Under the pieces are notes generated by a model. It saw only the letters and a list, made by a program, of their open reading frames with translations, had not been told where the DNA came from and did no database searches. The translations under genes and the position numbers were made by a program. This document shows positions 2,834 through 63,126 of a stretch of DNA of 64,000 nucleotides, piece after piece; within the stretch, counting starts at the first letter, position 1; each line of letters begins with the position of its first letter. Source of the stretch: a virus (lineage: Duplodnaviria; Heunggongvirae; Uroviricota; Caudoviricetes); the IMG/VR virus record IMGVR_UViG_3300028859_000015; one strand, written 5' to 3'.

Positions 2834-3005
2834 TAATTATAAAATTACTCCAATTTATTTGCGGATTCCAATCTATTAAACTTGTTCCAAAGTAGTCTTC
2901 TAAATTATCTATTACTTGTTTAGCTGAAAAATCAGATAAAAACTCCCATGGTGTATCATAATATAGTAGATAAGTCCCAGTAGGTATATGTAAAATTTTA
3001 TACAT
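2802..3005 (-). CDS. HIPTG/EFEIIEI family member
   Basis: MYKILHIPTGTYLLY ... NEFEVIYDKV. Confidence 0.6.
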   Translation of the reverse strand: MYKILHIPTGTYLLYYDTPWEFLSDFSAKQVIDNLEDYFGTSLIDWNPQINWSNFIINEFEVIYDKV

Positions 3006-3008
3006 CTC

Positions 3009-3242
3009 TCATACCTCCACTATCTCAAATAATATCTTGTTTTCTGGTATTACTATATAACTAGCATCTGTTGGATATAGTATAATACGTTCATTTAGTT
3101 TCTCAATAGCTTCTTTTTTTGAATCTACTTCATATATATGATATGAAGATGTATTAGTAATTTCATTAGAACAATATAAATTTCCCTCAGGAAAGAAACA
3201 GTACAAATATTCCCCAGGTTCTATAAATAATATTCTATACAT
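3009..3242 (-). CDS. HIPTG/EFEIIEI family member (MYRILFIE subgroup)
   Basis: MYRILFIEPGEYLYC ... LFEIVEV. One of three near-identical tandem copies. Confidence 0.6.
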   Translation of the reverse strand: MYRILFIEPGEYLYCFFPEGNLYCSNEITNTSSYHIYEVDSKKEAIEKLNERIILYPTDASYIVIPENKILFEIVEV

Positions 3243-3244
3243 AG

Positions 3245-3478
3245 CTATACCTCCACTACCTCAAATAATATCTTGTTTTCTGATATTACTATATAACTAA
3301 TATCTGTTGGATATATTATAATATTTTCATCTAGCTTCTCAATAGCTTCTTTTTTTGAAGCTACTTCATATAAGGAATACAAATTAGAATGAGGGGTATT
3401 ACTTAAGTAATATAAATATCCATCAGTATATAGGCAATATAAATATTCTCCAGTTTCTATAAATAATATTCTATACAT
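3245..3478 (-). CDS. HIPTG/EFEIIEI family member (MYRILFIE subgroup)
   Basis: MYRILFIETGEYLYC ... LFEVVEV. Confidence 0.6.
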   Translation of the reverse strand: MYRILFIETGEYLYCLYTDGYLYYLSNTPHSNLYSLYEVASKKEAIEKLDENIIIYPTDISYIVISENKILFEVVEV

Positions 3479-3480
3479 GG

Positions 3481-3735
3481 CTATACCTCCACTATCTCAA
3501 ATAATAATCTATTATCAGGTATAGTCAATAGAATTTTATTAGCTAGTTCAATCTCTAAAACTTCAGATAGTTTATCAATAGCTTCTTTTTTTGAAGCTAC
3601 TTCATATATTTTAAACTTATAACATATATTCTTAGGAGGATTATTAACTTCATATGAGTAATACAAATTAGCATAAGGGGTATTACTTAAGCAATATAAA
3701 TATTCTCCAGTTTCTATAAATAATATTCTATACAT
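3481..3735 (-). CDS. HIPTG/EFEIIEI family member (MYRILFIE subgroup)
   Basis: MYRILFIETGEYLYC ... LFEIVEV. Confidence 0.6.
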   Translation of the reverse strand: MYRILFIETGEYLYCLSNTPYANLYYSYEVNNPPKNICYKFKIYEVASKKEAIDKLSEVLEIELANKILLTIPDNRLLFEIVEV

Positions 3736-3737
3736 GG

Positions 3738-4010
3738 CTATACCTCTACTATATCAAATAATAACGGATTTTCATCTAAGTAAATATCATTATGAAGTAT
3801 ATCAAGTATAGAAAATGAAGGATACTTAATAGTATCAGTAGCTTCAAATAGTATTTTTGCCTCTTCAATAGTTTTAAATTCCCAAGGAACAAATAGATTC
3901 TGCTCACCATCACCAACTATTTCATAAACAGAAAATTTTGAATCACAGTGAGGAGTGCCAATATATCTATAAATATAATCTCCACTTTCTATATATAATA
4001 TTCTATACAT
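3738..4010 (-). CDS. HIPTG/EFEIIEI family member
   Basis: MYRILYIESGDYIY ... LFDIVEV. Confidence 0.6.
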   Translation of the reverse strand: MYRILYIESGDYIYRYIGTPHCDSKFSVYEIVGDGEQNLFVPWEFKTIEEAKILFEATDTIKYPSFSILDILHNDIYLDENPLLFDIVEV

Positions 4011-30926: not shown

Positions 30927-31225
30927 AAATAGTAGACTAAATAAGAAATGGATGGGATGTAGCGAATTGAACGCTATCTAAAACCTTCAAAGGGTCCTGT
31001 GCTACCGTAACACCTCATCCCAATAACTCTATTATCGTCCAATTTTTATTTTTCTTTATAGATAATATCCAATACCAAGCATAAAAATATCAGCATCTTT
31101 ATTGTTATCTGTTATTACTCTATCAAATAAGGCCTTTGTTGATTAGTTTTACCATAAGAAAAATCAATATCTTGAGAATATAATGATAAACAAGACATAA
31201 CTAATACTAAACTCATAGATTTCAT

Positions 31226-36819: not shown

Positions 36820-37477
36820 GGTATTTCTCCGTAAAAGGCCAATAATTAGGCCATATTTGAGCTGAATTGATCAAATTAGTTATTAATTACTTCCCTAATT
36901 TCAGAAGTATGGGTATATTTATTACTATTAGGCCAAAAAATAACCAAAATAGAGCCTACAGCAGATTCAGTAATAATGTCTGAGCTTGAGGCAGGACCCA
37001 TAAAAAGCGGAATATACTTTGCAGACTGAAGAACGATTTCGGAATACTGTTTATACTCACCATCATTACCTTGATTATAGGTAGGTTCTTTAGTTCCAAT
37101 TAATCGTCTCACTTGTTTATTTTCTACATCAAGTTCGTACATAGAATTTTGAGTTTTAATTAGAGTGGTCATTTTTGTTCCTCCAAGAAAAATAGCAGTC
37201 TTCTTGACTGCTATTATTAACTTAAAAACTACTACAACTACTTACAAACGAGCCTACACTCTACCACTGAATTAGACAGCCTTTGTTTAGCAATCATTTG
37301 CGCTATTAATGCTTCTTCCTCTTCTGGTGTCATCAAATCCCAATTTAGCAAGAGTTCTCCTATGGATTAACTAAAAATGGTAGCCCTAGTAGGTGCTGCC
37401 CCTACGACTTCCGACTTATAAGGTCGGCACTCTACTGTTGAGTTACAGGGCCTTCTAATCAAATTATCGGCTATTTC

Positions 37478-43455: not shown

Positions 43456-43540
43456 TGGTGCTTCCGACGAGCCACGACCTCGTAATCCTTTTCAGGCGCG
43501 GGTTTTTAAGACCCGAGTGTATACATTCCACCACGGAAGC
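43456..43540 (-). tRNA. candidate class-II tRNA-Leu(UAA) with encoded CCA
   Basis: Hand fold of the minus strand: 7-bp acceptor GCTTCCG/CGGAAGC. U8, A14. 3-bp D stem. Anticodon arm CGGGT-CTTAAAA-ACCCG (U33, anticodon UAA, A37). 15-nt variable arm with CCT-GAAA-AGG. T arm ACGAG-GTCGTGG-CTCGT. Discriminator A73, then CCA. D- and T-loops are non-canonical. GC-rich island in AT-rich DNA. Confidence 0.45.
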
Positions 43541-49493: not shown

Positions 49494-49742
49494 TTACTTA
49501 TTAGACTTGCTGTCTTTCATGCCATCATCAAATCCACGGCACCAGAACCTATATTCCCTGGTATCTGGAGCATAAGGACATTCTCTGACTTTGGTCTTTC
49601 GATATGTCTTGCCAGAGACATATCCAGACTTTGCTGCTTCAATGATGGACGGCTTTTGGTTCTTGAGCTGTTGTGGAATAAGACCAACAGCATCAATAGT
49701 GATACCAGATTTTGCAAGGGCCTGACCAAGAGCAGTGGACAT
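49494..49742 (-). CDS. hypothetical protein, homolog of 57998..58291 (SIIEAA-SGY...TREY-FWC-GFD family)
   Basis: Shares SIIEAAKSGYVSGKTYRKTKVR..PY..TREYRFWCRGFDDG with the 58-kb copy. GC about 43% vs about 27% background. Confidence 0.55.
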   Translation of the reverse strand: MSTALGQALAKSGITIDAVGLIPQQLKNQKPSIIEAAKSGYVSGKTYRKTKVRECPYAPDTREYRFWCRGFDDGMKDSKSNK

Positions 49743-49902: not shown

Positions 49903-50139
49903 TTAATTATGTTGATTAAATATTTGATTCCATACCTGCTTATTTACTTGATTCTCTACTTGATCCCATACTTTATGGTGTAATTCATTAGCTACTTGAT
50001 TCCATACTTGCCTAAGTATTTGATTACTTATTTGAGTCTTTATTTGGTTACTTGCTTGATTATAAACTCTATTCCTTACTTGACTACATACTTGATTCCC
50101 TACTTTATTATCTACTTGACTCCTTACTGATTTAAGCAT
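49903..50139 (-). CDS. MLKSV-(xNQV)n tandem-repeat small protein
   Basis: SD AAGGGGA. Start ATGCTTAAATCAGTAAG. Body is 12-nt repeats N-Q-V-x. Confidence 0.55.
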   Translation of the reverse strand: MLKSVRSQVDNKVGNQVCSQVRNRVYNQASNQIKTQISNQILRQVWNQVANELHHKVWDQVENQVNKQVWNQIFNQHN

Positions 50140-50218
50140 TATTTATCCCCTTCATTGGTTTGTTAGTACTTGATGGAATAGCTATAAAAGCTACTCCACT
50201 AAATACTAAAATCAAATA

Positions 50219-50557
50219 TTAATCAGCAACGTTCCTCGTATAACCCTGAACATATTCCTTCTGAATATAGGATTCAAAGGTCTTACCAGCAGGAAGATTG
50301 AAATGGCCATGTTCTTCATGAGTGAGTTCGGCAGGAGCTTCATCCACATGAAGATAAATCTTACCTTCCAGCTCGTAGGCAGAAATACCAGGAATGGCCT
50401 CAACAGCATGATGATGGCCAGTCACTTCTCCATCAGCAAGAATATATCGGCCATTCACGGCTTCCAGCTTCTTGGCATTTGTTGGAATTGAAGAAACTTC
50501 CTCAACAAATACATCACCCTGACGAGCCTGCTTGTCAAACTTCTTGTTAGTCTTCAT
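50219..50557 (-). CDS. hypothetical protein (GC-rich cargo)
   Basis: 112-aa ORF. GC about 42%. Confidence 0.5.
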   Translation of the reverse strand: MKTNKKFDKQARQGDVFVEEVSSIPTNAKKLEAVNGRYILADGEVTGHHHAVEAIPGISAYELEGKIYLHVDEAPAELTHEEHGHFNLPAGKTFESYIQKEYVQGYTRNVAD

Positions 50558-50770
50558 TGATTTCTCCTCCAGAGAAAGGTTTTGTTGCTTTATTAATTTT
50601 TGACTTTATAGTTATAGCTTTGTGTAACTCTGTAATATCTAATAGACTTGATACTTCTATGTTAATATCATTACTAACTTTTTTCCATACTATATAATTT
50701 ACATTATTAAAGACACATCCACTTACTTGGGCTGTTACTTTACTTAACATCTCCCTTTTAACAGAATTAA

Positions 50771-50977
50771 TCATGTTTTTAAATCCTCAGTAATTATTTC
50801 TATTCTTATTTGCTCTCCTATTCCTATGAATGCTGTACTATCTATTTGATTACTTACTTGACTACTTACTTTCTTATTTATTTGGTTACTTGCTTGATTA
50901 AACACTTGATTAAACACTTGATTAAACACTTGACAGAATATTTGATTTCTTACTTGGGGCTTTATTGATTTGAGCAT
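50771..50977 (-). CDS. MLKSI-(xNQV)n tandem-repeat small protein
   Basis: Internal Met MLKSIKPQVRNQIF of track ORF 50771..51085. Directly follows the stop of the 328-aa gene. Confidence 0.5.
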   Translation of the reverse strand: MLKSIKPQVRNQIFCQVFNQVFNQVFNQASNQINKKVSSQVSNQIDSTAFIGIGEQIRIEIITEDLKT

Positions 50978-50981
50978 TTTA

Positions 50982-51968
50982 CTAGGTCTCAATGCTCGGA
51001 TTGTATTTAGCACCAGTCTTACCAAAGGTCGAAGCAACCGCATTTTTTGCGGTAAATTTTTGAGCTGCTCCAAAGGTTCCATCAAGCTTCATAGGACGAA
51101 GCTGGGGGTGAACACGAAGGAAGTAAGTCTTGTACATATGTTCTTTCCAATAATCCAGGTCTTTCTGATATTCAGCACGAGTCATATATTTCTTAATATC
51201 CCACTTTGGCTTAGGTTCAGGAGTGGAATTAAGCACTTCCACCATCATAATGTCTTCATCACCGTCAATTTTCTTACGCCAAAGAGTCCCAAAGGAATCA
51301 CTATGAATCTTTTCAGCATTGGTTCCCTTGAGATATTCAGCAACTCCAAACAAATCAATCATAATTCTTCGAACTTCCGCATTGGTTTCTTTTTCAATGC
51401 GGTCAACGGTAATGGAAGACCTGTCAAGAATAATATCTTCTGGAACACTGATACCATGAAAGAAGTACAAAAAATAACCATCACGATACTTAACAGCTGG
51501 GCCAGAAGTATTGTGAAGCCTATTTTCAGGGTCACGATGAAGCTCTGAAGGCCTGTCTTGGAGAACGGCAAGAGTTTCGTAGGCGCTCCACCAGCAACAA
51601 TTCTTCGCAAATTCAACAAGAAGATTAAACCCATTAGTAAAACCAGTGACCCCAACAACTTCCTGCATGTACTCATAGAAAGAAAGCCAAGAAGCCTCTT
51701 GATTACCGAAAGACATGTCAAAGAAAATGGAACTCTCTGACATAGAACTATCAATATTCTTAATAATAGAAATAGCTTCCTTCGGGGAACGTGCATAGAG
51801 GATGGTGTCGGGGGCCTTCAATCCAGTTTCTTCGTACAATTTTACTGCGCTTTTCTTTGCCTCCTCAAAATTGATAGGGTCTGTCGAAAGACCAATCTTC
51901 TGCCACTTATCGACAAATTCCGGAAATCTTGCTTCCTGTTCCTTGGTCAAGCTAGCGATTTTAGCCAT
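50982..51968 (-). CDS. hypothetical protein (328 aa, GC-rich cargo)
   Basis: Long ORF. GC about 40%. Confidence 0.55.
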   Translation of the reverse strand: MAKIASLTKEQEARFPEFVDKWQKIGLSTDPINFEEAKKSAVKLYEETGLKAPDTILYARSPKEAISIIKNIDSSMSESSIFFDMSFGNQEASWLSFYEYMQEVVGVTGFTNGFNLLVEFAKNCCWWSAYETLAVLQDRPSELHRDPENRLHNTSGPAVKYRDGYFLYFFHGISVPEDIILDRSSITVDRIEKETNAEVRRIMIDLFGVAEYLKGTNAEKIHSDSFGTLWRKKIDGDEDIMMVEVLNSTPEPKPKWDIKKYMTRAEYQKDLDYWKEHMYKTYFLRVHPQLRPMKLDGTFGAAQKFTAKNAVASTFGKTGAKYNPSIET

Positions 51969-51981
51969 TGTAGTTCTCCAG

Positions 51982-52218
51982 TTAGTGGGTTAGGTTATTT
52001 GATAGACTATTAAACAAAGCTCTTCTTGTGAGTTCTATTTGATTATCTACTTGATTCTTTATTTGATTATATACTTGATTATTTACTTGATTCCATACTT
52101 GAATATTTGTTTGCTTATATACTTGATTCTTTACTTGATTATCTACTTGATTCTTTATTTGATTATATACTTGATTATTTACTTGATTCCATACTTGGGG
52201 CTTTATTGATTTAAACAT
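51982..52218 (-). CDS. MFKSI-(xNQV)n tandem-repeat small protein
   Basis: SD AGGGGAA. 12-nt repeat body. Confidence 0.55.
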   Translation of the reverse strand: MFKSIKPQVWNQVNNQVYNQIKNQVDNQVKNQVYKQTNIQVWNQVNNQVYNQIKNQVDNQIELTRRALFNSLSNNLTH

Positions 52219-52220
52219 TA

Positions 52221-52331
52221 TTCATTCCCCTATTTGATTATATACTTGATTCCATACTTGATTCCTTACTTGATTATATACTCGTCTCAATACTTGTTCA
52301 CATACTTGACTCTTTACTAATTTAAGCATTT
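52221..52331 (-). CDS. short MLKLV-(xNQV)n repeat protein (36 aa)
   Basis: ATGCTTAAATTAGTAAAG start. Its stop TGA overlaps the SD of the next repeat gene. Confidence 0.4.
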
Positions 52332-52547
52332 TATTCAACACATTTGAATAGGAAATTTTTATCACTATTAGTCATATTAGGATGAAATTGTTTAGTCATA
52401 TTCCAGGCATGGTCTAAAATACTTGTTAACTCAAGGTCAGTATATTTTGCTTTACAATATTTGACAGATTTTTCAAAGTCTGGAAGATAAACATCCATCC
52501 TGAAAGAGTTATTAGACATGTGAGTCTCCTGTAGAGAGTGTTGAGGT

Positions 52548-52802
52548 TTATTCCCAAGGACAATCTATGCCTCTAACATAATTGAAAGGGTCTACCTCAA
52601 CTGATTTTCCATCTTTTACAGCAAATACAGTATTACATTTTTCACAAGTATATGGAGAATGCCTATTAACATTTACAAGAACTGATTTAGGAGCTTTTTT
52701 AAGTGAAAAAGTATCCAAATTACAGTTACCACTCTTACTCTGAAAATCTTCCCTGTGGCCACATTTAGGACAAGGTACTTTTACAGTATCATACATTCCC
52801 AT
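52548..52802 (-). CDS. zinc-ribbon protein
   Basis: CPKCGH...CEKCN. Confidence 0.45.
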   Translation of the reverse strand: MGMYDTVKVPCPKCGHREDFQSKSGNCNLDTFSLKKAPKSVLVNVNRHSPYTCEKCNTVFAVKDGKSVEVDPFNYVRGIDCPWE

Positions 52803-52965
52803 AGAGTTTCTCCTTGAGGCAATAAAAGTGAAGGTTATTCAGGCGATACCTTCAAACGCTTATCGAGGGCACCAGTAGTTTTTTTAAGAGAAACTACAAA
52901 CTCCTGGAGAAGATGCTGGTAGACTCAGGCACTACCCATATCTATCCTCATAGCATCTAAATAGT

Positions 52966-53018
52966 AGTGCTAGTAGATTCAGAATAGTTTTTCTATTCCT
53001 ATCTATCTTAATAGCACT
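52966..53018. ncRNA. structured repeat element, copy B
   Basis: Outer stem agtgcta/tagcact: three base pairs changed relative to copy A, all compensatory. Inner stem gaatag-ttttt-ctattc. Same conserved core. Confidence 0.5.
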
Positions 53019-53031
53019 CTATCAAATCAGC

Positions 53032-53211
53032 TTAATCCAAGAGCTGTTTCAAGAGTTTAACAAATAAAAATCCCACGGCAATACCAACAATAAAAAGCCA
53101 ATAATTATGAATTACAACACTAGGGAACTGTTTATACATTACATCATTCCAACCAAGCATAAGAATATAAAGAAGAAACATACCAAGAATAATGGAAATA
53201 ATTTGTTTCAT
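53032..53211 (-). CDS. 59-aa membrane protein
   Basis: MKQIISIILGMFLLYILMLGW... Not in the ORF track. Confidence 0.4.
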   Translation of the reverse strand: MKQIISIILGMFLLYILMLGWNDVMYKQFPSVVIHNYWLFIVGIAVGFLFVKLLKQLLD

Positions 53212-54236
53212 ATTGACTAATCTCCTTGTGGGGGCTATTAAATTATCGTCTTCATCTGGATTAAAGAAAGACCTACAATCAAAATTAAAATAAAATTTTC
53301 TTTCTTCTAACTCTGCTTCATAACTAGCAAGTTCTTCCTGGGCATCTAATTTTTCATTATAATATAGTTCATCAAGGGCTTTTTAATTTCTTTCTTTGAA
53401 GAAAGAAGTTTAGCCCTCACCTAAAAATCTTTATGAAATTGAATGCTGGTATTAAGGAGATTTTTCATACCTCTCCAAAAACCACGTTCCTTGAAATGGC
53501 AAATCCAATCATTGAGCTTATAATTATATGACCCGCAGCCACACTTAAAATAGAGTTTCATTGTAGTTCTCCTATGTTTCTATTTCTCGTTCCCATTTAA
53601 GCTGGGCCCTATGAGAGTTATAGACAACTTGTTCACAACCTATTCTAATATCCATATTGTTAACTTCATAACAACTAATAACAAAGTTAAAATCTTTAAA
53701 AAACCATAAATGTTTTTTAAACCATTTATTAAAACATGGCATATTTTTAAATCCAAATTTGAAATAATCTCTAAAATCCTCCCCCAAGCCATCATCTCTG
53801 GGAGTAGTCATATCCCCAAGCTCTGAATAAACCCCTGAATCACATAAGGCAGAATAAAAAATTTCATTTCTAAACCTATAGTTAAAAGGACCTTCACGAG
53901 TAATTTTATGTTCAAGTCTAAAAATTTCCATGTAGTCCTCCTAGGTTAGTGAATCAAATTAAGGGTTAGGTAATAAATACCTAACCACTAATCAGATTGG
54001 TGGGACTTGGAACTTTAAATTATATACTAGTATTTATTTTTCGCTGTATTTATAAGTAAGAATAGCTACAGGACTAATTTCCGTCTCACCTTCAAGAATT
54101 GGATGACCTTCAAAAACCATCCAACAATTACCTGAATAAATAGGCAGTTTAAGAACCTTGCTCAAATCATTTGTAATCACACGCTGCATTTTAGTTACCT
54201 TAACGTCACTATAAATAAGGGTATAGGGCTTCATTT

Positions 54237-54365
54237 TCAGTCCTTTCTTGTTATTCCGTTAAGTATTGATTGATTATATACTTGACTATATACTTGATTC
54301 CCTACTTGATTCCATACTTGAATACTTACTTGATTCCTTACTTGACTCCTTACTGATTTAAGCAT
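54237..54365 (-). CDS. short MLKSV-(xNQV)n repeat protein
   Basis: Same conserved start. Stop 3 nt before the next gene start. Confidence 0.4.
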   Translation of the reverse strand: MLKSVRSQVRNQVSIQVWNQVGNQVYSQVYNQSILNGITRKD

Positions 54366-54562
54366 TATTTATTCTCCTTTATTTGATTGTATACTTGATT
54401 CCATATTTGATTTAGTACTTTTTCTAATATTTGAAGATATACTTGATTCTTTATTTGATTATCTACTTGACTATATACTTGATTCCCTACTTGATTATCT
54501 ACTTGATTCCCTACTTGATTCCATACTTGAATACTTACTTGACTCTTTACTGATTTAAGCAT
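54365..54562 (-). CDS. MLKSV-(xNQV)n tandem-repeat small protein
   Basis: SD AAGGAGA. 65 aa. Confidence 0.55.
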   Translation of the reverse strand: MLKSVKSQVSIQVWNQVGNQVDNQVGNQVYSQVDNQIKNQVYLQILEKVLNQIWNQVYNQIKENK

Positions 54563-54565
54563 TAT

Positions 54566-54763
54566 TTATTCTCCTTTCAAGAGATAAGATTGTTCTTGAT
54601 TCCATATTTGATTTGGTACTTTTTCTAATATTTGAAGATATACTTGATTATTTACTTTACTCTCTACTTGATTACTTACTTGATTCCATATTTGACTCGT
54701 TACTTTGTCCTTTATTTGATGTCCCACTCTACTTCTTACTATAATAGTCTCTGATTTAAGCAT
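54566..54763 (-). CDS. MLKSE-(xNQV)n tandem-repeat small protein
   Basis: SD AGGAGA. 65 aa. Confidence 0.55.
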   Translation of the reverse strand: MLKSETIIVRSRVGHQIKDKVTSQIWNQVSNQVESKVNNQVYLQILEKVPNQIWNQEQSYLLKGE

Positions 54764-54779
54764 TACTTATCCCCATTCT

Positions 54780-56342
54780 TTATGGGACAATAGGCAAGCT
54801 GTCTGCTTCATTGACACTTGGAAATACAAATTGCCCATACCCTGTTCTATGGCCTTGTTTAAGATATCTAAAATTATATGGTTGAGTCAAAGGTCTGCTA
54901 CTATTATACATACCCAGAGTAGCACAATTAGTTTCAGCAATCTCTTTAATGATTCTATATGATTCAAGAAAATTAACTTTCATATCTTCAGCACACCAAT
55001 GATTACAAATTAAAACAGGCCTACCCACTGTTCGTCTTGCTGGCCCTGACACTCTCATATTCTGAAGAGAACTATTTAATGGGAAGAATTTTTTAGTATA
55101 GTGAACTTGAATAATAATTTCAAATTGATTTTCTTTGTCAGAATAATCAGTAAAGCTAACACCACGACTAGCCATAAAGCCAGCGATGATAATAACTTTA
55201 CGAAATCCCAAATCTTTTTGTTGTTTAATTAAATCAGCTAAAGTCTCTTCTGAACTTTCTTTGGTTTCTGAATTCATTACAAATAATCCAACTTTATTAC
55301 TTGCTCCCAATTCATTAAGATGTCTTTTAATTACCTCAGCCATTCCAAATTGTTGAATTTTACGATTTTCAAGACTAATTAAACAAAGTTGTACAATATC
55401 AGACCCCTCTTCCTGTTTGTTAGCTGCCTTTACAAACTGTTCAGTAGCAAAACTAACAGCTGGATAGAAACTATTATATGCTTGGTCCATATAATCACCA
55501 GTCCAACGATTACGAGCCTTACATCTATTTTCAACAATACGACCATCTAATACTATATTAGCAGGATGGTCAATACCAATACCGACATAATTTTGATAAG
55601 GTTGTTTATAAAGAACTAACCAATCATCCTTTTCTGCTGTAAGAATAGCAGCAGGAGTAGCAGAAACAAAGATAGTTCTACTATTAGATCTAGATTTAAC
55701 CATATTTTTAATTTGAAGAAGAAGCATAGTCACTGGAGGAAGGGAACTACCATCAGCTACTGGCTCTTCATCTAAAGTGTCTTCGTCATCAGATTCTATA
55801 TTTTTTTTCTTACTTTGCTTTCTTTCATTAGCCTCAATTGTATTTCTGGATTTGTCCGCCTCGTCAATTACTACAGTCACTGGTAAATCTTCCAGCATAT
55901 CTAGGATATCTTCTAGTTGTTTTAGATTATTAATTTCCATAAGCAAATGAATAATACGTTTTTTACCTACTGATTCTTTTAGAAACTTACCAAGTCTAAT
56001 ATCATCACGATAATTGACAATCTCAAAGCCAAGACTACGGGCTCTACTATTAGTCTGTGATGCTAGGCAGGTATTCTTATCACTAATAAAAACAATGGCA
56101 GATTCTTTATAGAAATGGCTAACTGTTTTAAGAACATCACTAGTTTTGCCACTTTGTACTGATTTGAATAAAATAATGCTGGTATAAGACTTATGCTCAA
56201 TTAAAACATCTTTAACTTCCGTACTGTTGGAGAGCATTAGGAATTTACCCATTGTATTTCTCCTATTTGGCAGCAAACTTCCACATGCCATTGTTGTTAA
56301 CTTCAGGTTTAGTATTGCTTGATGGATATGTAATAAATACAT
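54780..56342 (-). CDS. SF2 DEAD/DEAH-type helicase-like ATPase
   Basis: Motif I VQSGKTS, motif II VVIDEADKS, motif III FVSATPA. The track ORF starts at GTG 56348; the first ATG is at 56342. Confidence 0.55.
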   Translation of the reverse strand: MYLLHIHQAILNLKLTTMACGSLLPNRRNTMGKFLMLSNSTEVKDVLIEHKSYTSIILFKSVQSGKTSDVLKTVSHFYKESAIVFISDKNTCLASQTNSRARSLGFEIVNYRDDIRLGKFLKESVGKKRIIHLLMEINNLKQLEDILDMLEDLPVTVVIDEADKSRNTIEANERKQSKKKNIESDDEDTLDEEPVADGSSLPPVTMLLLQIKNMVKSRSNSRTIFVSATPAAILTAEKDDWLVLYKQPYQNYVGIGIDHPANIVLDGRIVENRCKARNRWTGDYMDQAYNSFYPAVSFATEQFVKAANKQEEGSDIVQLCLISLENRKIQQFGMAEVIKRHLNELGASNKVGLFVMNSETKESSEETLADLIKQQKDLGFRKVIIIAGFMASRGVSFTDYSDKENQFEIIIQVHYTKKFFPLNSSLQNMRVSGPARRTVGRPVLICNHWCAEDMKVNFLESYRIIKEIAETNCATLGMYNSSRPLTQPYNFRYLKQGHRTGYGQFVFPSVNEADSLPIVP

Positions 56343-56360
56343 ATCCACTAAACAATAATT

Positions 56361-56600
56361 CTAGTTAGCTATTTTATTACTTACTTGATTATATACTCGT
56401 CTCAATACTTGTTCACATACTTGAATTCTTACTTGAATTCTTACTTGAATTCTTACTTGATTACTTACTTGATTCCATGCTTGATTAAATACTTGATTAA
56501 ATACTTGATTAAATACTTGATTAAATACTTGATTAAATACTTGATTCGTTACTTGGGTATATATTTGGTTATCTACTTGATTCCTTACCGATTTAAGCAT
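56361..56600 (-). CDS. MLKSV-(xNQV)n tandem-repeat small protein
   Basis: Five consecutive FNQV units. 12-nt repeats. Confidence 0.55.
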   Translation of the reverse strand: MLKSVRNQVDNQIYTQVTNQVFNQVFNQVFNQVFNQVFNQAWNQVSNQVRIQVRIQVRIQVCEQVLRRVYNQVSNKIAN

Positions 56601-57589
56601 TGTCTATAGCCTTGATGCTAGTCCACCATGCTAGACATTCTTCAACTTTATCATAAGCCAATGGACAAGTTAGATTGTATTCGCATTGGCCACATATCTT
56701 TTCAGCCAATTCATTATGTTCGTTAGTTGTTTGTTCTTTATTGTCACTCATATAATCTCCTTGTTTTGAGTTTGTTCTTAGTTAACTAGGGGATGTCCTT
56801 TATTCAGAGTTCCTAGTTGAATAAAAACAAATACTGGCCCAGGATAGTATGTTCCCAGGCCAGTATATTTTACTATTGTTCTATAATCTCTAGGTTTAGT
56901 CTCAACGTTGTGGTAGTTTTTATAAGTTGGCTTAACTACCAAACCATGGCATATATCTAACCCTGCATGTACCACCTCACAATTCCCTATATTACCCAGG
57001 CGATTAGGTAATATAGCTCAAGAAGATTGGAGTTGTATTCTTGGGGGATTTAGATATGCGGAAAATCCCCAACAACCGCTTAATTAACATGACATTGTTC
57101 ATCTTTTCTCCTATTGGTGTGGGTGCCATTTTCGATAACAGCATTCCACAATTGCTCTAGCTCTTTCAAGCTAGGACAGTTAGAAGGAGACTCATGTTTA
57201 GACACAGGCTTGTATCCATAAACAAGAGTCAGTAAGAAAAAGTTGAGGGTTTATACGATACCCACAAACGTTTATTCCCCAGTCGCTTCACAGGTTTCCC
57301 TCCACATACTGGGGTACTTCTACTATGTGAGAGTTTGAGGCTATATAGTCCACCACTATGTAGACTATTAGTAGGATACTACTGGAATATAAACAACTCC
57401 CAGCAATATGCAGCTCACAACCAGACGTGAGGGTTATTCGATACCAAACTGACCCCCTAAAAATCAATTTAATACAGCCAAGCGTATTAAACTTGGCTGA
57501 ATAAACTGATTGTATTTATTTGAGCTGTAATAGGCCTAGGAGACCTACTTGCCGTTCTTCATCTTACCGTGTGCCTTGATCTTTCCGGC

Positions 57590-57691
57590 CTTACTTTGCC
57601 CGGTCCTGGTCTTGTTCAGGCGGTCGGAAACGGTGAGTTTGTTCTTGTTCACCTTGTCGAACTTCTCAACCTTGACTTTGGCTTTGGCCAT
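57590..57691 (-). CDS. small Lys-rich basic protein (about 35 aa; a +1 shift at a C4 run would extend it to about 50 aa)
   Basis: SD AAGGAG. MAKAKVKVEKFDKVNKNKLTVSDRLNKTRTGAK*. The other frame continues QSKAGKIKAHGKMKNGK. GC-rich islet. Confidence 0.35.
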
Positions 57692-57748
57692 GATTACTTC
57701 TCCTTTTTGTTGTGTTGTTTCTTGTATATAGAGGGAGGATGTTGAGGT

Positions 57749-57889
57749 TTATTCGAAATGAACGGTATAACGGGTATCCTTGTGAGAGATGCCCTTGTTC
57801 ATGCGCTTCTGTTTGTTGTTCTGGAGACGCTTGTACTGCTTTCGTGAACCTGCCTTATCCAGAGTGAGGAACTTCTCAGTGGTTGACAT
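57749..57889 (-). CDS. 46-aa basic protein
   Basis: SD AAGGAGAG. MSTTEKFLTLDKAGSRKQYKRLQNNKQKRMNKGISHKDTRYTVHFE. Confidence 0.4.
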   Translation of the reverse strand: MSTTEKFLTLDKAGSRKQYKRLQNNKQKRMNKGISHKDTRYTVHFE

Positions 57890-57997
57890 GTTTCTCTCCT
57901 TGTTAATAAATACCAGGAACTATTCCTGATAATATAAGATTATCTTGATGATAGTCTAGGAGTTAGCCAGACCACCACTAAAACAACTGATTATTTA

Positions 57998-58291
57998 TTA
58001 ATCTTCAGAGGCATAATCCTCCGTATTGTATTCGGGCTCCTGGTGAACAAGCTTGGCATCCTGGATACCGTAATCAAAACCATGGCACCAGAACGTGTAC
58101 TCCCTGGTCGTCTTCTCGTAGGGATTGAGACGAAGCTTGAACTTCTTGTAGGTGTATCCGGCATAATACCCGGACGTGGCCGCTTCGATGATGGACCGAG
58201 GATAGCCCTTCAGCTGACGTGCCACCAGAGAAACATTGTCGATCTTCACAATGTTCTCACCTTCGATGTGGATGTTTTCAAGACCTTTCAT
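57998..58291 (-). CDS. hypothetical protein, homolog of 49494..49742
   Basis: SIIEAATSGYYAGYTYKKFKLR..PY..TREYTFWCHGFDYG. SD AGGAGA. GC about 47%. Confidence 0.55.
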   Translation of the reverse strand: MKGLENIHIEGENIVKIDNVSLVARQLKGYPRSIIEAATSGYYAGYTYKKFKLRLNPYEKTTREYTFWCHGFDYGIQDAKLVHQEPEYNTEDYASED

Positions 58292-58366
58292 GACGTTCTC
58301 CTATCTTTCTTGTGTTGTTGGAAATAAGTCTTAATCACTATGACTAAGACCAGTAAAAAGCCGGTA

Positions 58367-58660
58367 CTAAAACTTATTGAGGAAGTGGATAGTAACAAGG
58401 CTAAGACTAAGGATACCCCATATACAGAAGGTACCCAGTCCCATGAACAAGATAGCATCCAGTAAAGAAATACCAGATTCTTTCTTGTCCATATCAACTA
58501 TCTTGTTAGACACAATGAACTGACCATTATGTTTGGCCCATTCCTTGCATCTTTTGATTCCCTCATTGTCTGCGAGGGTAGAGAAGTGTGTACGCCCAGG
58601 ATTTTCAGGCCTCCCACTAACTAAGGACATTATCTGTCCTTTCTTGATTATGTTGAGCAT
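58367..58660 (-). CDS. hypothetical protein with C-terminal TM helix
   Basis: 97-aa ORF. Confidence 0.45.
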   Translation of the reverse strand: MLNIIKKGQIMSLVSGRPENPGRTHFSTLADNEGIKRCKEWAKHNGQFIVSNKIVDMDKKESGISLLDAILFMGLGTFCIWGILSLSLVTIHFLNKF

Positions 58661-58792
58661 TGTATGATTCCTCCTATAGATAAAGAAACTGTTGTTGACA
58701 AATATGAGAGGGAGGTGTTAATGAGATACTAACATTTAACACTCAATCTCACATTTAGCAAAAACAGTAATAAATTATGGCATATATCTACC

Positions 58793-58984
58793 TTAGGGTA
58801 TAATTTCTGCCCTTATTTTATTAACTACTTGATTATATACTTGATTAAACACTTGATTAAACACTTGATAGAATATTTGATTTCTTACTTGGGTATATAT
58901 TTGGTTATCTACTTGATTCCATACTTGATTCTTTACTTGGGTATATATTTGGTTATCTACTTGAGTCCTTACTGATTTAAGCAT
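58793..58984 (-). CDS. MLKSV-(xNQV)n tandem-repeat small protein
   Basis: SD AAGGGGA. 63 aa. Confidence 0.55.
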   Translation of the reverse strand: MLKSVRTQVDNQIYTQVKNQVWNQVDNQIYTQVRNQIFYQVFNQVFNQVYNQVVNKIRAEIIP

Positions 58985-59150: not shown

Positions 59151-59281
59151 TATCTAACCCGTGTTAACTTGTGTTGACTTTATCTAACTTATTTAAATTT
59201 ATCTAACCCGTGTTAACTTGTGTTAACTTGTGTTGACTTTATCTAACTTATTTAAATTTATCTAACCCGTGTTAACTTGTG
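59151..59281. repeat. about 2.5 copies of a 49/59-nt tandem repeat with internal 10-nt GTGTTAACTT sub-repeats (iteron-like)
   Basis: tatctaacccgtgttaacttgtgttgactttatctaacttatttaaatt repeated. The second unit carries an extra gttaacttgt. Confidence 0.7.
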
Positions 59282-61357: not shown

Positions 61358-61633
61358 TTATATAACCCTGCCAATATCTCTCAAATATTCTATTTCTTTG
61401 TCAGATATCTCAATTATCTCAAACTCATTCTTACAAATTTTAATATAATATTCAGAACCATATAAATTACAATAACCATTATTTAAGACATTAATAGCTT
61501 CTTCCATAGTTTTAAGACACATAAAATTATATGAATTATGAGTTAACGTGACATAACAAACAGAATCTTTTGGAGTTTCTGTTAATATAGGTCTAATATA
61601 TTCTCCGGTTGGTATATGTAATATCTTATACAT
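61358..61633 (-). CDS. HIPTG/EFEIIEI family member
   Basis: MYKILHIPTGEYIRP ... NEFEIIEISDKE... Confidence 0.6.
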   Translation of the reverse strand: MYKILHIPTGEYIRPILTETPKDSVCYVTLTHNSYNFMCLKTMEEAINVLNNGYCNLYGSEYYIKICKNEFEIIEISDKEIEYLRDIGRVI

Positions 61634-61886
61634 TCTTATCTTCTATCTCTATTATCTCAAATTCATTTTCACAAATATCAGTTATCCATGAAGGTTTATC
61701 ATTAATACGAACTGTAATACCATTAAGTTTTCTAACATATTTTAGAATTCTAGCTAAACAATATTCAGCATCAAGTATATCAGGATAAGTTTGAACCATA
61801 TATAAAGGAAAATCAGCAAATACAGGACTAGATAGTATACCAGAATAATAAGTACCGGTAGGAATATGTAATATTAAATATCTCAT
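61626..61886 (-). CDS. HIPTG/EFEIIEI family member
   Basis: MRYLILHIPTGTYYSG ... ENEFEIIEIEDKNV. Confidence 0.6.
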   Translation of the reverse strand: MRYLILHIPTGTYYSGILSSPVFADFPLYMVQTYPDILDAEYCLARILKYVRKLNGITVRINDKPSWITDICENEFEIIEIEDKNV

Positions 61887-62117
61887 TTTATTTCTATTAT
61901 CTCAAATTCATTTTCACAAGACACTTCAAAACAGCCCTGATTATTAATATAGATATATTGATTTTTTATACTGTTAGTTGTAAGCTCTTCAACCTTTCTG
62001 ATATTAATCATATTGGCCGTATTTTTATCATTAGAAAATACGGCAATATTATACAAAAAAAATATCCGTTTCAGCATTATACCAAGTACCGGTTAATATA
62101 TGAAAAATATAATACAT
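61883..62117 (-). pseudogene. HIPTG/EFEIIEI family copy frameshifted at a T8/A8 homopolymer
   Basis: Frame A: MYYIFHILTGTWYNAETDIFFV*. Frame B (track ORF 61883..62077): ...IFFLYNIAVF...CENEFEIIEIK. The switch occurs at the a8 run at 62054..62061. Confidence 0.5.
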
Positions 62118-62125
62118 CTAATCTC

Positions 62126-62371
62126 CTATATCTTTATTTCTATTATAGCCAATTCATTTTCTAATATCAGCATAGTCTCTAATGTATCATTAATAAGAAA
62201 ATATGCCGGATTATTTTTACAGTAATTCAATATACTACTTATTTTAAATATACTATCTTTATTATTTTTAAACTCTTTACTATAGTCATACCTATCACTA
62301 AAAGTAGGAATATCTATAGCGCCCATAAATGTATAATAGCTACCTGTCGGAATATGTAATATCTTATACAT
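62126..62371 (-). CDS. HIPTG/EFEIIEI family member
   Basis: MYKILHIPTGSYYTF ... ENELAIIEIKI. Confidence 0.6.
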   Translation of the reverse strand: MYKILHIPTGSYYTFMGAIDIPTFSDRYDYSKEFKNNKDSIFKISSILNYCKNNPAYFLINDTLETMLILENELAIIEIKI

Positions 62372-62630
62372 TATTGTCTTCTATCCTCTTGTATTCTATC
62401 TCTATTACTTCAAATTCATCTCTATCTGGTATCCTATAACTATCCTCAAAACGTACTTCAGTATGTAACATATGAAGTAAATAGCTAGTAGCTTTCTCTA
62501 AAGTAATAAAGGAACTTGACAAACCAATATAGGAGGTAGTAAATATCAAATGACCAGCAAAACCTCTAACTTCTCCAATATAAGTTCCGCTTAATAAATG
62601 TAGTATTTTATATCTAATCCCATCTCTCAT
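62364..62630 (-). CDS. HIPTG/EFEIIEI family member
   Basis: RYKILHLLSGTYIGE ... DEFEVIEIEYK. Confidence 0.55.
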   Translation of the reverse strand: MRDGIRYKILHLLSGTYIGEVRGFAGHLIFTTSYIGLSSSFITLEKATSYLLHMLHTEVRFEDSYRIPDRDEFEVIEIEYKRIEDNNV

Positions 62631-62907
62631 CTATTATTTCAAACTCATTAAAGTTAACATAGATTATATTAATAGTTTGTGTTTGTTTATAGTTTGGACT
62701 TATATTTATTTGTGATACCCCTAATAACTTTTTTAGGTCATTATAGGCGGATTCATAAGAGGTAAAATATTTAGCCCATTCAAAGTCTACAAATAAAAGT
62801 AAATGATTTATTACATGTGTAGAGCTATAATAAAATTGTCCTGATGGTATGTGTTTTATTTTATAATTCATATTAAGATATGGCATAGAAATAGAGAATG
62901 TTTTCAT
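62614..62907 (-). CDS. HIPTG/EFEIIEI family member
   Basis: YKIKHIPSGQFYY ... NEFEIIDERWD. Confidence 0.55.
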   Translation of the reverse strand: MKTFSISMPYLNMNYKIKHIPSGQFYYSSTHVINHLLLFVDFEWAKYFTSYESAYNDLKKLLGVSQINISPNYKQTQTINIIYVNFNEFEIIDERWD

Positions 62908-62952
62908 ATTAATTTCCAGATATAACTTAATTTCTGGATTCTTTATAATAAA

Positions 62953-63126
62953 ATACTAACTAATTTCTATTACCTCATAATTACTAGAAAACTCTGGGCA
63001 TTGTATTGTTATCCAGCCAATCATACTTTCTGCCGTTTGCTTCCTAGAAAATATCCAACGCTCATGAATACTATTAGGAACATATTCTCCAGATATTACG
63101 TTAAGAATAACATATTGTTTAGCCAT
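62953..63126 (-). CDS. HIPTG/EFEIIEI family member (57 aa, below track cutoff)
   Basis: MAKQYVILNVISGEYV ... NYEVIEIS. Confidence 0.45.

Follow-up and report, generated by a model that had tools for sequence, protein, structure and literature searches.

The stretch of DNA analysed here (64,000 nucleotides (nt) of the IMG/VR virus record IMGVR_UViG_3300028859_000015, Caudoviricetes; hereafter the window) holds a family of very small genes built from 12-nt tandem units, which we call mini-genes. On balance, these are probably real, translated genes for predicted helical proteins, which would represent the split form of a repeat module of the DUF6745 protein family and might have a tunable role in conflict. 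The arrays of units change fast, through 12-nt slippage and through unequal or ectopic recombination between copies, with the reading frame kept, and this change affects the number of units, the number of genes and the content of the arrays.

The family comprises nine minus-strand open reading frames (ORFs) of 35-79 amino acids (aa), distributed over six loci named A to F (Table 1), and one degenerate copy; they have in common the head MLKSV[RK]xQV. The ORFs start with ATG-CTT-AAA-TCA-GTA-AGR or a close variant, and in each of them a four-codon register runs unbroken from ATG to stop: position 1 is V or I (GTA/ATA), position 2 is variable, position 3 is mostly N (AAT) and position 4 is Q (CAA). 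Arrays of period 12 were detected at every mini-gene site using Tandem Repeats Finder; within the 64-kb window they are confined to 49.9-59.0 kb and share one orientation. The 16-nt head ATGCTTAAATCAGTAA has 9 occurrences at up to 3 mismatches (2.5 expected), a number reached in 0 of 100 shuffles. Outside the repeat, the mini-genes consist of a head of 4-9 residues and a short tail, with no larger flanking domains. The proteins are basic (isoelectric point 8.8-10.9), with 3-8 aromatic residues each and an N + Q content of 23-40% (12% in the degenerate copy).

A recognisable Shine-Dalgarno sequence (SD), in the context RGGRGAWTAAATA-ATG, precedes six of the nine mini-genes, and the remaining three start at or inside the stop codon of the upstream gene. 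An earlier, sequence-only reading of the window had placed an SD before every copy. It had also announced ten genes while giving coordinates for nine. All nine minus-strand ORFs exist, eight of them exactly as listed; its 52221-52331 becomes 52222-52329 (35 aa), since the stop codon of the upstream gene ends at 52331, and a tenth copy, degenerate, lies at 50547-50774. The head AATGCTTAA (or AATGCTGAAATCAGTTAG), read in another frame, forms the last residues and the stop codon of the upstream gene (...NA or ...NAEIS, then stop), an overlap seen at 56593-56600 of the window and in two other contigs (L006 4400-4415, L214 6785-6805); stop codons are present in both other frames of the head.

The link to DUF6745 comes from a profile built on ten window paralogs and searched against 1.84 billion representative proteins. 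It gave 1,444 matches, 25 of them below 1e-30 (best E value 1e-56), and 141 of the 150 best of these 1,444 were DUF6745 proteins of 300-600 aa with an internal tetrapeptide repeat. The 328-aa protein encoded between loci D and E of the window is itself a DUF6745 member (PF20530, E 3.7e-50; score 170 bits, cut-off 27). In the insert-bearing proteins, which occur in phages and bacteria, the repeat follows a conserved N-terminal region (LTxEQ...KW..IGLST) and precedes the DUF6745 core. It has 25 units in the median and 56 at most; its consensus is V at position 1 (80%), R/G/W at position 2, D/N/S/A at position 3 and Q at position 4 (93%). In further members the insertion site is occupied by repeats of the form L-x-[A/D]-N, V-x-[A/D]-S or L-x-S-S; the conserved feature is therefore one hydrophobic, one variable and two small or polar residues. 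Insert and mini-genes have in common the 4-residue motif hydrophobic-x-[D/N/S/A]-Q, W/R/G-type variability at position 2, 12-nt units and a widely varying unit number. They differ in that the insert is part of one polypeptide, whereas each window repeat is an ORF in its own right, with start and stop, and these ORFs stand beside an insert-less DUF6745 gene.

Other searches were far less productive. An exact-sequence look-up of the nine window alleles in a collection of 15 billion proteins found none of them, a word-indexed homologue search with one mini-protein returned nothing, and the homologues came from the exhaustive profile search. The mini-genes had no Pfam match above threshold, and PHROGs gave weak, partial matches only. 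In about 50,000 phage genomes, just one match was found; the relatives seen in cultured phages were DUF6745 genes of Microcystis Ma-LMM01-type phages, which are repeat-less, and one repeat-bearing DUF6745 gene of a Mycobacterium abscessus prophage.

IMG/VR was scanned with a degenerate DNA pattern for five consecutive units, which gave at least 120 loci (L137-L256). These loci were chosen for holding an array, several of them are near-duplicates, and their ORFs were classified heuristically with our own script; the IMG/VR counts given here and below are among the matches listed. Stand-alone mini-genes (complete ORFs of at most 130 aa, median 63 aa) numbered at least about 198 and were present in 66 of the 120 loci, with up to 17 at one locus (L193). 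DUF6745 proteins with an internal repeat numbered 28, and none of the 28 loci encoding them holds mini-genes, whereas mini-genes and a DUF6745 gene occur together in 23 loci (24 DUF6745 genes), where all 24 are insert-free and on the same strand as the mini-genes, a contrast biased by the selection of loci for an array. The distance between the two is at most 165 nt in 13 of 24 cases and at most 1 kb in 23. Since every nearby DUF6745 gene lacks the insert and is co-oriented, the sequences suggest fused and split forms of one system, in which the array would be optional.

Heads and tails are lineage-specific in these loci (heads MKSVKNQV, MKQVSDQV, MTLENKV, MKAVNNQV and others; tails KENLK, DDIEM, NDLRK, WDEK and others). 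The second commonest neighbour is a 107-126 aa 'QGD...GHxH' protein, seen in 18 of 77 mini-gene loci, of the same family as the 112-aa protein of the window; this family also adjoins repeat-less DUF6745 genes in the array-free contigs L008 and L009. The 112-aa protein has no Pfam family and no significant relative in the PDB (best E 0.019), and PADLOC and NCBIfam gave no match either. In L001 (1-950) and L214 (6620-6985), neighbouring mini-genes of a tandem share about 17 nt in shifted frames, which puts successive arrays into different reading frames.

Copies that adjoin an insert-less DUF6745 gene, one of them degenerate (50547-50774), could also be taken for decaying fragments of a former insert, that is, pseudogene debris. 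We give this explanation little probability: no copy is without a start of its own, most also have an SD, and heads and tails are specific to the lineage; moreover, dozens of unrelated phage contigs show the arrangement again, and the alleles stay open across strains.

Table 1. Repeat mini-genes of the window and the genes adjoining them at loci D to F.
Feature	Position	Strand	Description
Repeat mini-gene, locus A	58793-58984	-	63 aa, MLKSVRTQV...; ORF, SD, register
Repeat mini-gene, locus B	56361-56600	-	79 aa; start overlaps stop of upstream 52-aa Cys-rich ORF
Repeat mini-gene, locus C, first of three tandem	54566-54763	-	65 aa, divergent head MLKSETII
Repeat mini-gene, locus C, second	54365-54562	-	65 aa
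Repeat mini-gene, locus C, third	54237-54365	-	42 aa
Repeat mini-gene, locus D, first	52222-52329	-	35 aa, MLKLVKSQV
Repeat mini-gene, locus D, second	51982-52218	-	78 aa, MFKSIKPQV; ends 13 nt before DUF6745 start
DUF6745 protein without internal tetrapeptide repeat, proposed mini-gene partner	50982-51968	-	328 aa
Repeat mini-gene, locus E	50771-50977	-	68 aa; start 4 nt past DUF6745 stop
Degenerate repeat gene	50547-50774	-	75 aa, MINSVKREMLSKVTAQVSGCVFNNV... (MINSVKREMLSKVTAQV...); 4-residue register over about 11 units
112-aa 'QGD...GHHH' protein, phrog_27831	50219-50557	-	PHROG match E 3e-14
Repeat mini-gene, locus F	49903-50139	-	78 aa; AlphaFold2 single helix

It is the amino-acid pattern, not a DNA word, that is conserved between genomes, because the codons differ from one genome to another. 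The unrelated contig L001 (T4-like, from IMG/VR, with gp32 and gp59) has five tandem small ORFs encoding (V-x-[N/D]-Q)n as GTC-NNN-AAC/GAC-CAA; in gp38, the DUF6745 protein of the M. abscessus prophage prophiGD102-1, (L-[W/R/G]-[D/G]-Q)n is written CTC-NGG-GRC-CAG; and two unrelated IMG/VR phages encode the head MLKSVRKQV with CTG/GTT/AGA codons, against CTT/GTA/AGG in the window. The sequence-only reading had argued for selection at the protein level, and the retention of h-x-[N/D]-Q (h, hydrophobic) and of the head MLKSVR with other codons in other phages bears it out. None of the 21 distinct alleles first gathered from near-identical strains has lost the register or the ORF, and the same holds for the alleles of longer contigs. 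A test of stop-codon avoidance (P about 0.009) is partly circular and carries little weight.

For the comparison between strains, fourteen further contigs of the same phage and a more distant relative (L006) were used. The long same-phage contigs are 99.5-99.98% identical to the window, and their alignments are interrupted at two kinds of site, the arrays and a 59-nt intergenic repeat. Among these contigs, the VFNQ unit is present in 2, 4, 5 or 7 copies, and a locus holds one or two, or three or four, genes. The sequence-only reading had raised the possibility of a recombination hotspot, and the arrays are indeed sites of slippage and recombination between near-identical strains; its proposed check for variation between isolates was run, and the arrays vary in both unit and gene number. 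Random misassembly is argued against by the recurrence of identical alleles in independent assemblies, and in every allele the frame is open, with no internal stop, and the start, SD and stop are kept.

Loci A and F are mostly stable among strains: the allele of locus A is identical in six other contigs and differs by 3 units in L261, and locus F is identical in L260-L265, while in L002 it has 67% nucleotide identity between flanks that are 99-100% identical. Locus B holds two genes in all other contigs (55-75 aa and 59 aa), the first with VFNQ in 2, 4 or 7 copies and with or without AWNQ-VSNQ. The single 79-aa gene of the window consists of the head of the first and the tail of the second, joined in the common VRIQVRIQVCEQVLRRVYN block, and looks like a fusion of two genes through that block; the fused form was seen once, in the window only. 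Locus C has three genes in the window and four in L012 and L262. The first gene of locus D has a 65-aa allele in L011, against 35 aa in the window, and the second has 66-aa alleles with the same tail IELTRRALFNSLSNNLTH in L002 and L011. Alleles of locus E are 64, 68 or 72 aa long (VFNQ x2 or x3), with a block replacement in L002.

In L002, a more divergent strain, the non-repeat genes are 99.5-100% identical to those of the window and the arrays 67-90%; the degenerate gene at 50547-50774 is 99.5% identical. Within the window, exact blocks of 30-45 nt are common to loci up to 8 kb apart, and a 45-nt exact block is shared by 52222-52329 and 56361-56600. An apparent 2.1-kb deletion of neighbouring genes between loci C and D in L002 is unproven, because the contig starts 77 nt upstream of the junction and L011 has the same tail at locus D; ectopic conversion or misassembly are possible. 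L006, with a nucleotide identity of about 82%, lacks locus C and has one degenerate 37-aa gene at locus D; this copy rules out that L006 is without a repeat gene upstream of DUF6745.

The 59-nt direct repeat lies at 59161-59281 (2.1 copies, 100% identical, with GTGTTAACTT sub-repeats), in a gene-free stretch of about 700 nt upstream of the first mini-gene, and variation of its copy number is suggested by the alignments of strain contigs, which break there. With regard to a diversity-generating retroelement, no reverse transcriptase was found among the window ORFs scanned, a subset of all its ORFs. Variation in codon 2 concerns all three bases and all four nucleotides, and is accompanied by variation in unit number.

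The structure of the 78-aa protein of locus F was predicted by AlphaFold2 using an alignment of the paralogs, which gave one helix over residues 2-77 with a mean predicted local distance difference test (pLDDT) score of 90.8; all five models were helical (pLDDT 85-91). The hydrophobic moment reaches its maximum at 86-92° (peak 90°, corresponding to a period of 4.0 residues) and is low at 100°, and the mini-proteins lack the canonical heptad (3.5-residue) periodicity of coiled coils. On a standard α-helix, geometry implies that the ridge of Val residues would circle the axis once per nine units. The sequence-only reading had proposed β-solenoid or amyloid-like peptide assemblies. The N/Q-rich composition, the β-branched V/I with aromatics and a 90° hydrophobic periodicity unlike that of an ordinary amphipathic helix fit such assemblies, but the structure prediction that was run on this point argues against them, the insertion point of the module in DUF6745 comes right behind a helix (residues 62-72 in the window's 328-aa protein), and E/K/R/A-rich variants of the repeat exist (P0079); we consider them very improbable. 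Pentapeptide-repeat proteins and β-solenoids resemble the mini-proteins in their very short period and in one conserved hydrophobic residue per unit; the pentapeptide-repeat proteins differ in having period 5 and a β-helix, whereas the mini-proteins have period 4 and a predicted continuous α-helix.

In the mechanism proposed here, the mini-genes would encode small basic proteins, each one long α-helix of [V/I]-x-[N]-Q units. The DUF6745 repeat module, which is inserted in most members, would in this phage be carried by neighbouring mini-genes, and these may also have spread to other intergenic junctions. The helices would act together with DUF6745, and probably also with the conserved 112-aa 'QGD/GHxH' neighbour, while specificity would be set by the exposed second residue (W/Y/F/R/K/D/S/G) and by helix length. 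Their role, conjectured from an analogy with gp54 of phage Tweety, would be that of a mutationally 'tunable' part in phage-host or phage-phage conflict.

The searchable literature holds no description of the mini-genes and no mention of DUF6745 or of these repeat strings. Among studied systems, the nearest analogue is gp54 of mycobacteriophage Tweety, a counter-defence protein with 40-48 tetrapeptide repeats between unique N- and C-terminal domains (PMC9262239; PMC2884959); in the 48-copy form, the repeats are A-A-[G/W/Q]-[S/Y] in 12-bp units with invariant third codon positions (PMC2884959). Relatives are Che8 gp57 and PMC gp51, the copy number differs between them, and the gene is missing in one close relative and dispensable (PMC2884959). 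According to PMC9262239, which cites Dedrick et al. 2017, defence-escape mutants change the number of gp54 repeats, which is thought to tune the block of the (p)ppGpp-synthetase-type defence Phrann gp29/gp30. The likeness lies in the 12-bp tetrapeptide unit, in variation at particular codons (G/W/Q, S/Y) and in a repeat number that varies between related phages; the differences are the motif itself, a single-copy gene, unique flanking domains, and a function known for one defence system. Another phage gene of this sort, described in PMC2884959, is bbp36 of Bordetella phage BMP-1, non-essential, whose VR2 region is an in-frame tandem repeat with a copy number that varies between isolates, as in the mini-genes; here the unit is 24 bp (a 19-bp repeat and a 5-bp spacer) inside a larger protein rather than in a mini-gene family.

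A more specific proposal, which we put forward tentatively as a possibility, is that many uncultured tailed phages carry a hitherto unrecognised system of two or three parts: DUF6745, the 'QGD/GHxH' protein and a cassette library of hypervariable single-helix mini-proteins. In such a system the helices would be interchangeable determinants of specificity or length, diversified by slippage and recombination among up to 17 copies, and the whole would be a split, combinatorial counterpart of the Tweety gp54 counter-defence, following the logic of antigenic-variation cassettes.

Several points, besides the selection bias of the IMG/VR loci, weigh against the reading of the mini-genes as a split DUF6745 module with a conflict role. 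Five of the ten window copies are more than 2 kb away from the DUF6745 gene, and repeat-less DUF6745 genes stand without mini-genes nearby in L008-L010, so that the partnership is not obligatory. No fold match was found for DUF6745, a domain of unknown function, and Tweety gp54, when its sequence was checked, showed neither a Pfam domain nor similarity to DUF6745 (hhalign probability 0.1%), which makes it an analogue and not a relative. AlphaFold2 is prone to draw helices for repeats, and the predicted helix is not a conventional amphipathic or coiled-coil helix, since its moment peaks at 90° and not at 100°. The antisense frame is open in some arrays. In the window, the array codons for Val are GTA in 91% of cases (39% in other genes), those for Ile ATA in 80% (27%) and those for Gln CAA in 99% (68%), and the Val codon is GTC in 40 of 45 IMG/VR mini-gene loci, with a median of 96% per locus. 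Because these values exceed codon bias, nucleotide-level constraint or homogenisation must also be acting. Concerted evolution of the arrays explains the codon uniformity within a genome; the preference for GTC across genomes is not covered by it.

The same homogenisation of synonymous sites within a genome is what would be expected if the mini-genes were selfish or neutral minisatellite cassettes (ribosome-binding site, start, 12-nt array, stop) that spread at the DNA level, their product being tolerated and their effect being to supply homology for the shuffling, duplication and deletion of neighbouring genes. Such cassettes would also account for copies that are present or absent at gene junctions between relatives and that are mosaics of common blocks, for the fusion or splitting of genes at locus B and the change of gene number at locus C, and for a head whose two other frames contain stops and which provides upstream genes with their stop codon. 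We nevertheless find this explanation unlikely as a full account, for h-x-[DN]-Q is kept with other codons in genomes from about 30% to more than 65% GC, a conserved globular protein family retains the periodicity within its sequence, each phage lineage conserves its head and tail peptides, and no allele has an internal stop; minisatellite life and protein function may coexist. A comparable role is played in T4-type phages by the PeSL (promoter early stem-loop) cassettes, short dispersed boundary repeats that offer homology for modular gene gain, loss and replacement (PMC2839356, PMC4122927). They resemble the mini-genes as dispersed boundary repeats in variable regions of large phages, but consist of a non-coding promoter and stem-loop, whereas the mini-genes are coding and their promoter-like sites are at shuffle expectation.

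The arrays might, alternatively, serve as nucleic acids, being binding sites (such as iterons or regulator sites) or structural elements (such as an RNA motif) with incidental ORFs, as 9 of the 12 nucleotides per unit are nearly invariant, all arrays are in one orientation, and Val and Gln codons are fixed beyond codon bias. Against this stand the lack of any Rfam match for the arrays, mRNA folding that is not unusual (z -0.9 and +2.0), promoter-like sites that are not enriched (40 found, 41.7 expected by shuffle), the conservation across phages and DUF6745 of the peptide pattern rather than the DNA, and the starts, SDs and stops kept in every allele, and we regard such an origin as extremely unlikely.

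The neighbouring genes bear on a further explanation. The helicase-like gene at 54780-56270 (minus strand, 496 aa) starts (56270) 90 nt downstream of the locus B mini-gene. The label 'helicase' is tentative because the protein matches only PADLOC Helicase_II, and weakly (residues 30-153, E 1.8e-7); it has no significant match in Pfam (best E 0.084, below threshold), PHROGs or the phage database. The 90-nt gap contains a perfect hairpin, GGATATGTA-TTTATTA-CATATCC (56310-56340, minus strand), the only clear one.

The sequence-only reading had each copy abut or overlap the start of a downstream 'cargo' gene, as a leader-plus-cargo unit. This applies to part of the copies, but not to the helicase-like gene, nor to the Cys-rich 52-aa ORF, which lies upstream of its mini-gene and overlaps it. 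Spacing is tight or overlapping at several junctions, and the SD of a following gene is encoded in the tail of the copy before it, as would suit leader or coupling ORFs whose translation controls the cargo. However, L006 has the same cargo genes without repeat genes: the next cargo gene directly follows the helicase, with none at that site. The helicase start lies beyond the hairpin, several copies precede only another copy or an intergenic gap, and up to 17 tandem copies occur in other phages. A control function of this kind thus seems hardly probable, and an obligate leader-plus-cargo unit is not supported in the form proposed; the consistent partner in many phages is the repeat-less DUF6745 gene rather than cargo in general.

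A bacterial genome-wide scan with the DNA pattern says little about the taxonomy of DUF6745, as it mostly caught VSDQ/VTDQ linkers. At the bacterial loci L023-L136 (e.g. L036, L041, L130, L024, L100), perfect runs of 5-12 (VSDQ)n/(VTDQ)n units form a linker in Fic-family and Schlafen/AlbA_2-type ATPases, before a conserved C-terminal ...LSHRPTFRKNYLxPAL... These linkers share with the mini-genes a Q-V-x-D tetrapeptide and a 12-nt unit, and lie between two domains; they differ in having identical units with no variable position, in unrelated proteins, before a C-terminal winged-helix region.

The window has about 30% GC and all its genes on one strand, and the evidence points to its being part of a large uncultured tailed phage. 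Its PHROG and Pfam matches include an RNA ligase, AAA ATPases, ThyX, an SPFH protein and an OmpA-like protein, and one gene in the mini-gene region belongs to the T4 family Phage_T4_Y00F. The RNA ligases closest to that of the window, at 37-39% amino-acid identity, are those of the Synechococcus jumbo phages B3/B23 and of Lak megaphages, and metagenome contigs of the same phage reach 113 kb. A megablast search with the region found no nucleotide match among about 50,000 sequenced phages, and tblastn of the 802-aa protein and of the helicase-like protein against the phage database gave none either.

Other multi-copy elements were seen in the window. Two paralogous small genes at 49494-49742 and 57998-58291 (minus strand; 82 and 97 aa, 56% identity, E 2e-26) enclose most of the repeat-gene region. 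A second multi-copy family, of seven or eight tandem small genes of 56-97 aa, lies at 61358-63126 (minus strand), with a head like Y[KR]ILHIP[TS]G in most and a tail like NEFE[IV]IEI in nearly all. A 236-nt tandem repeat is found at 2991-3764 (3.2 copies, 79-83% matches). ARAGORN called a tRNA-Gln and a tRNA-Leu(TAA) at 30949-31022 and 43456-43540 (both minus strand), which Rfam does not list at gathering score, and Rfam called a tRNA at 37381-37452 (minus strand) that was missed by ARAGORN.

Whatever their function, the arrays are relevant to the tracking of strains, to the assembly of metagenomes, where contigs break in them, and to the question of how large phages reshuffle their variable regions, since they are the main sites of structural change between genomes that are 99.5-99.98% identical. 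The observations as a whole point to a widespread, unstudied and fast-evolving phage system. If the mini-genes act with DUF6745, a widespread domain of unknown function would gain a testable partner and its odd repeat insert a rationale. The tunable tetrapeptide-repeat principle, so far represented by Tweety gp54 alone, would then have a second and much wider instance, and a class of multi-copy phage genes that databases of cultured phages largely miss would be recognised.

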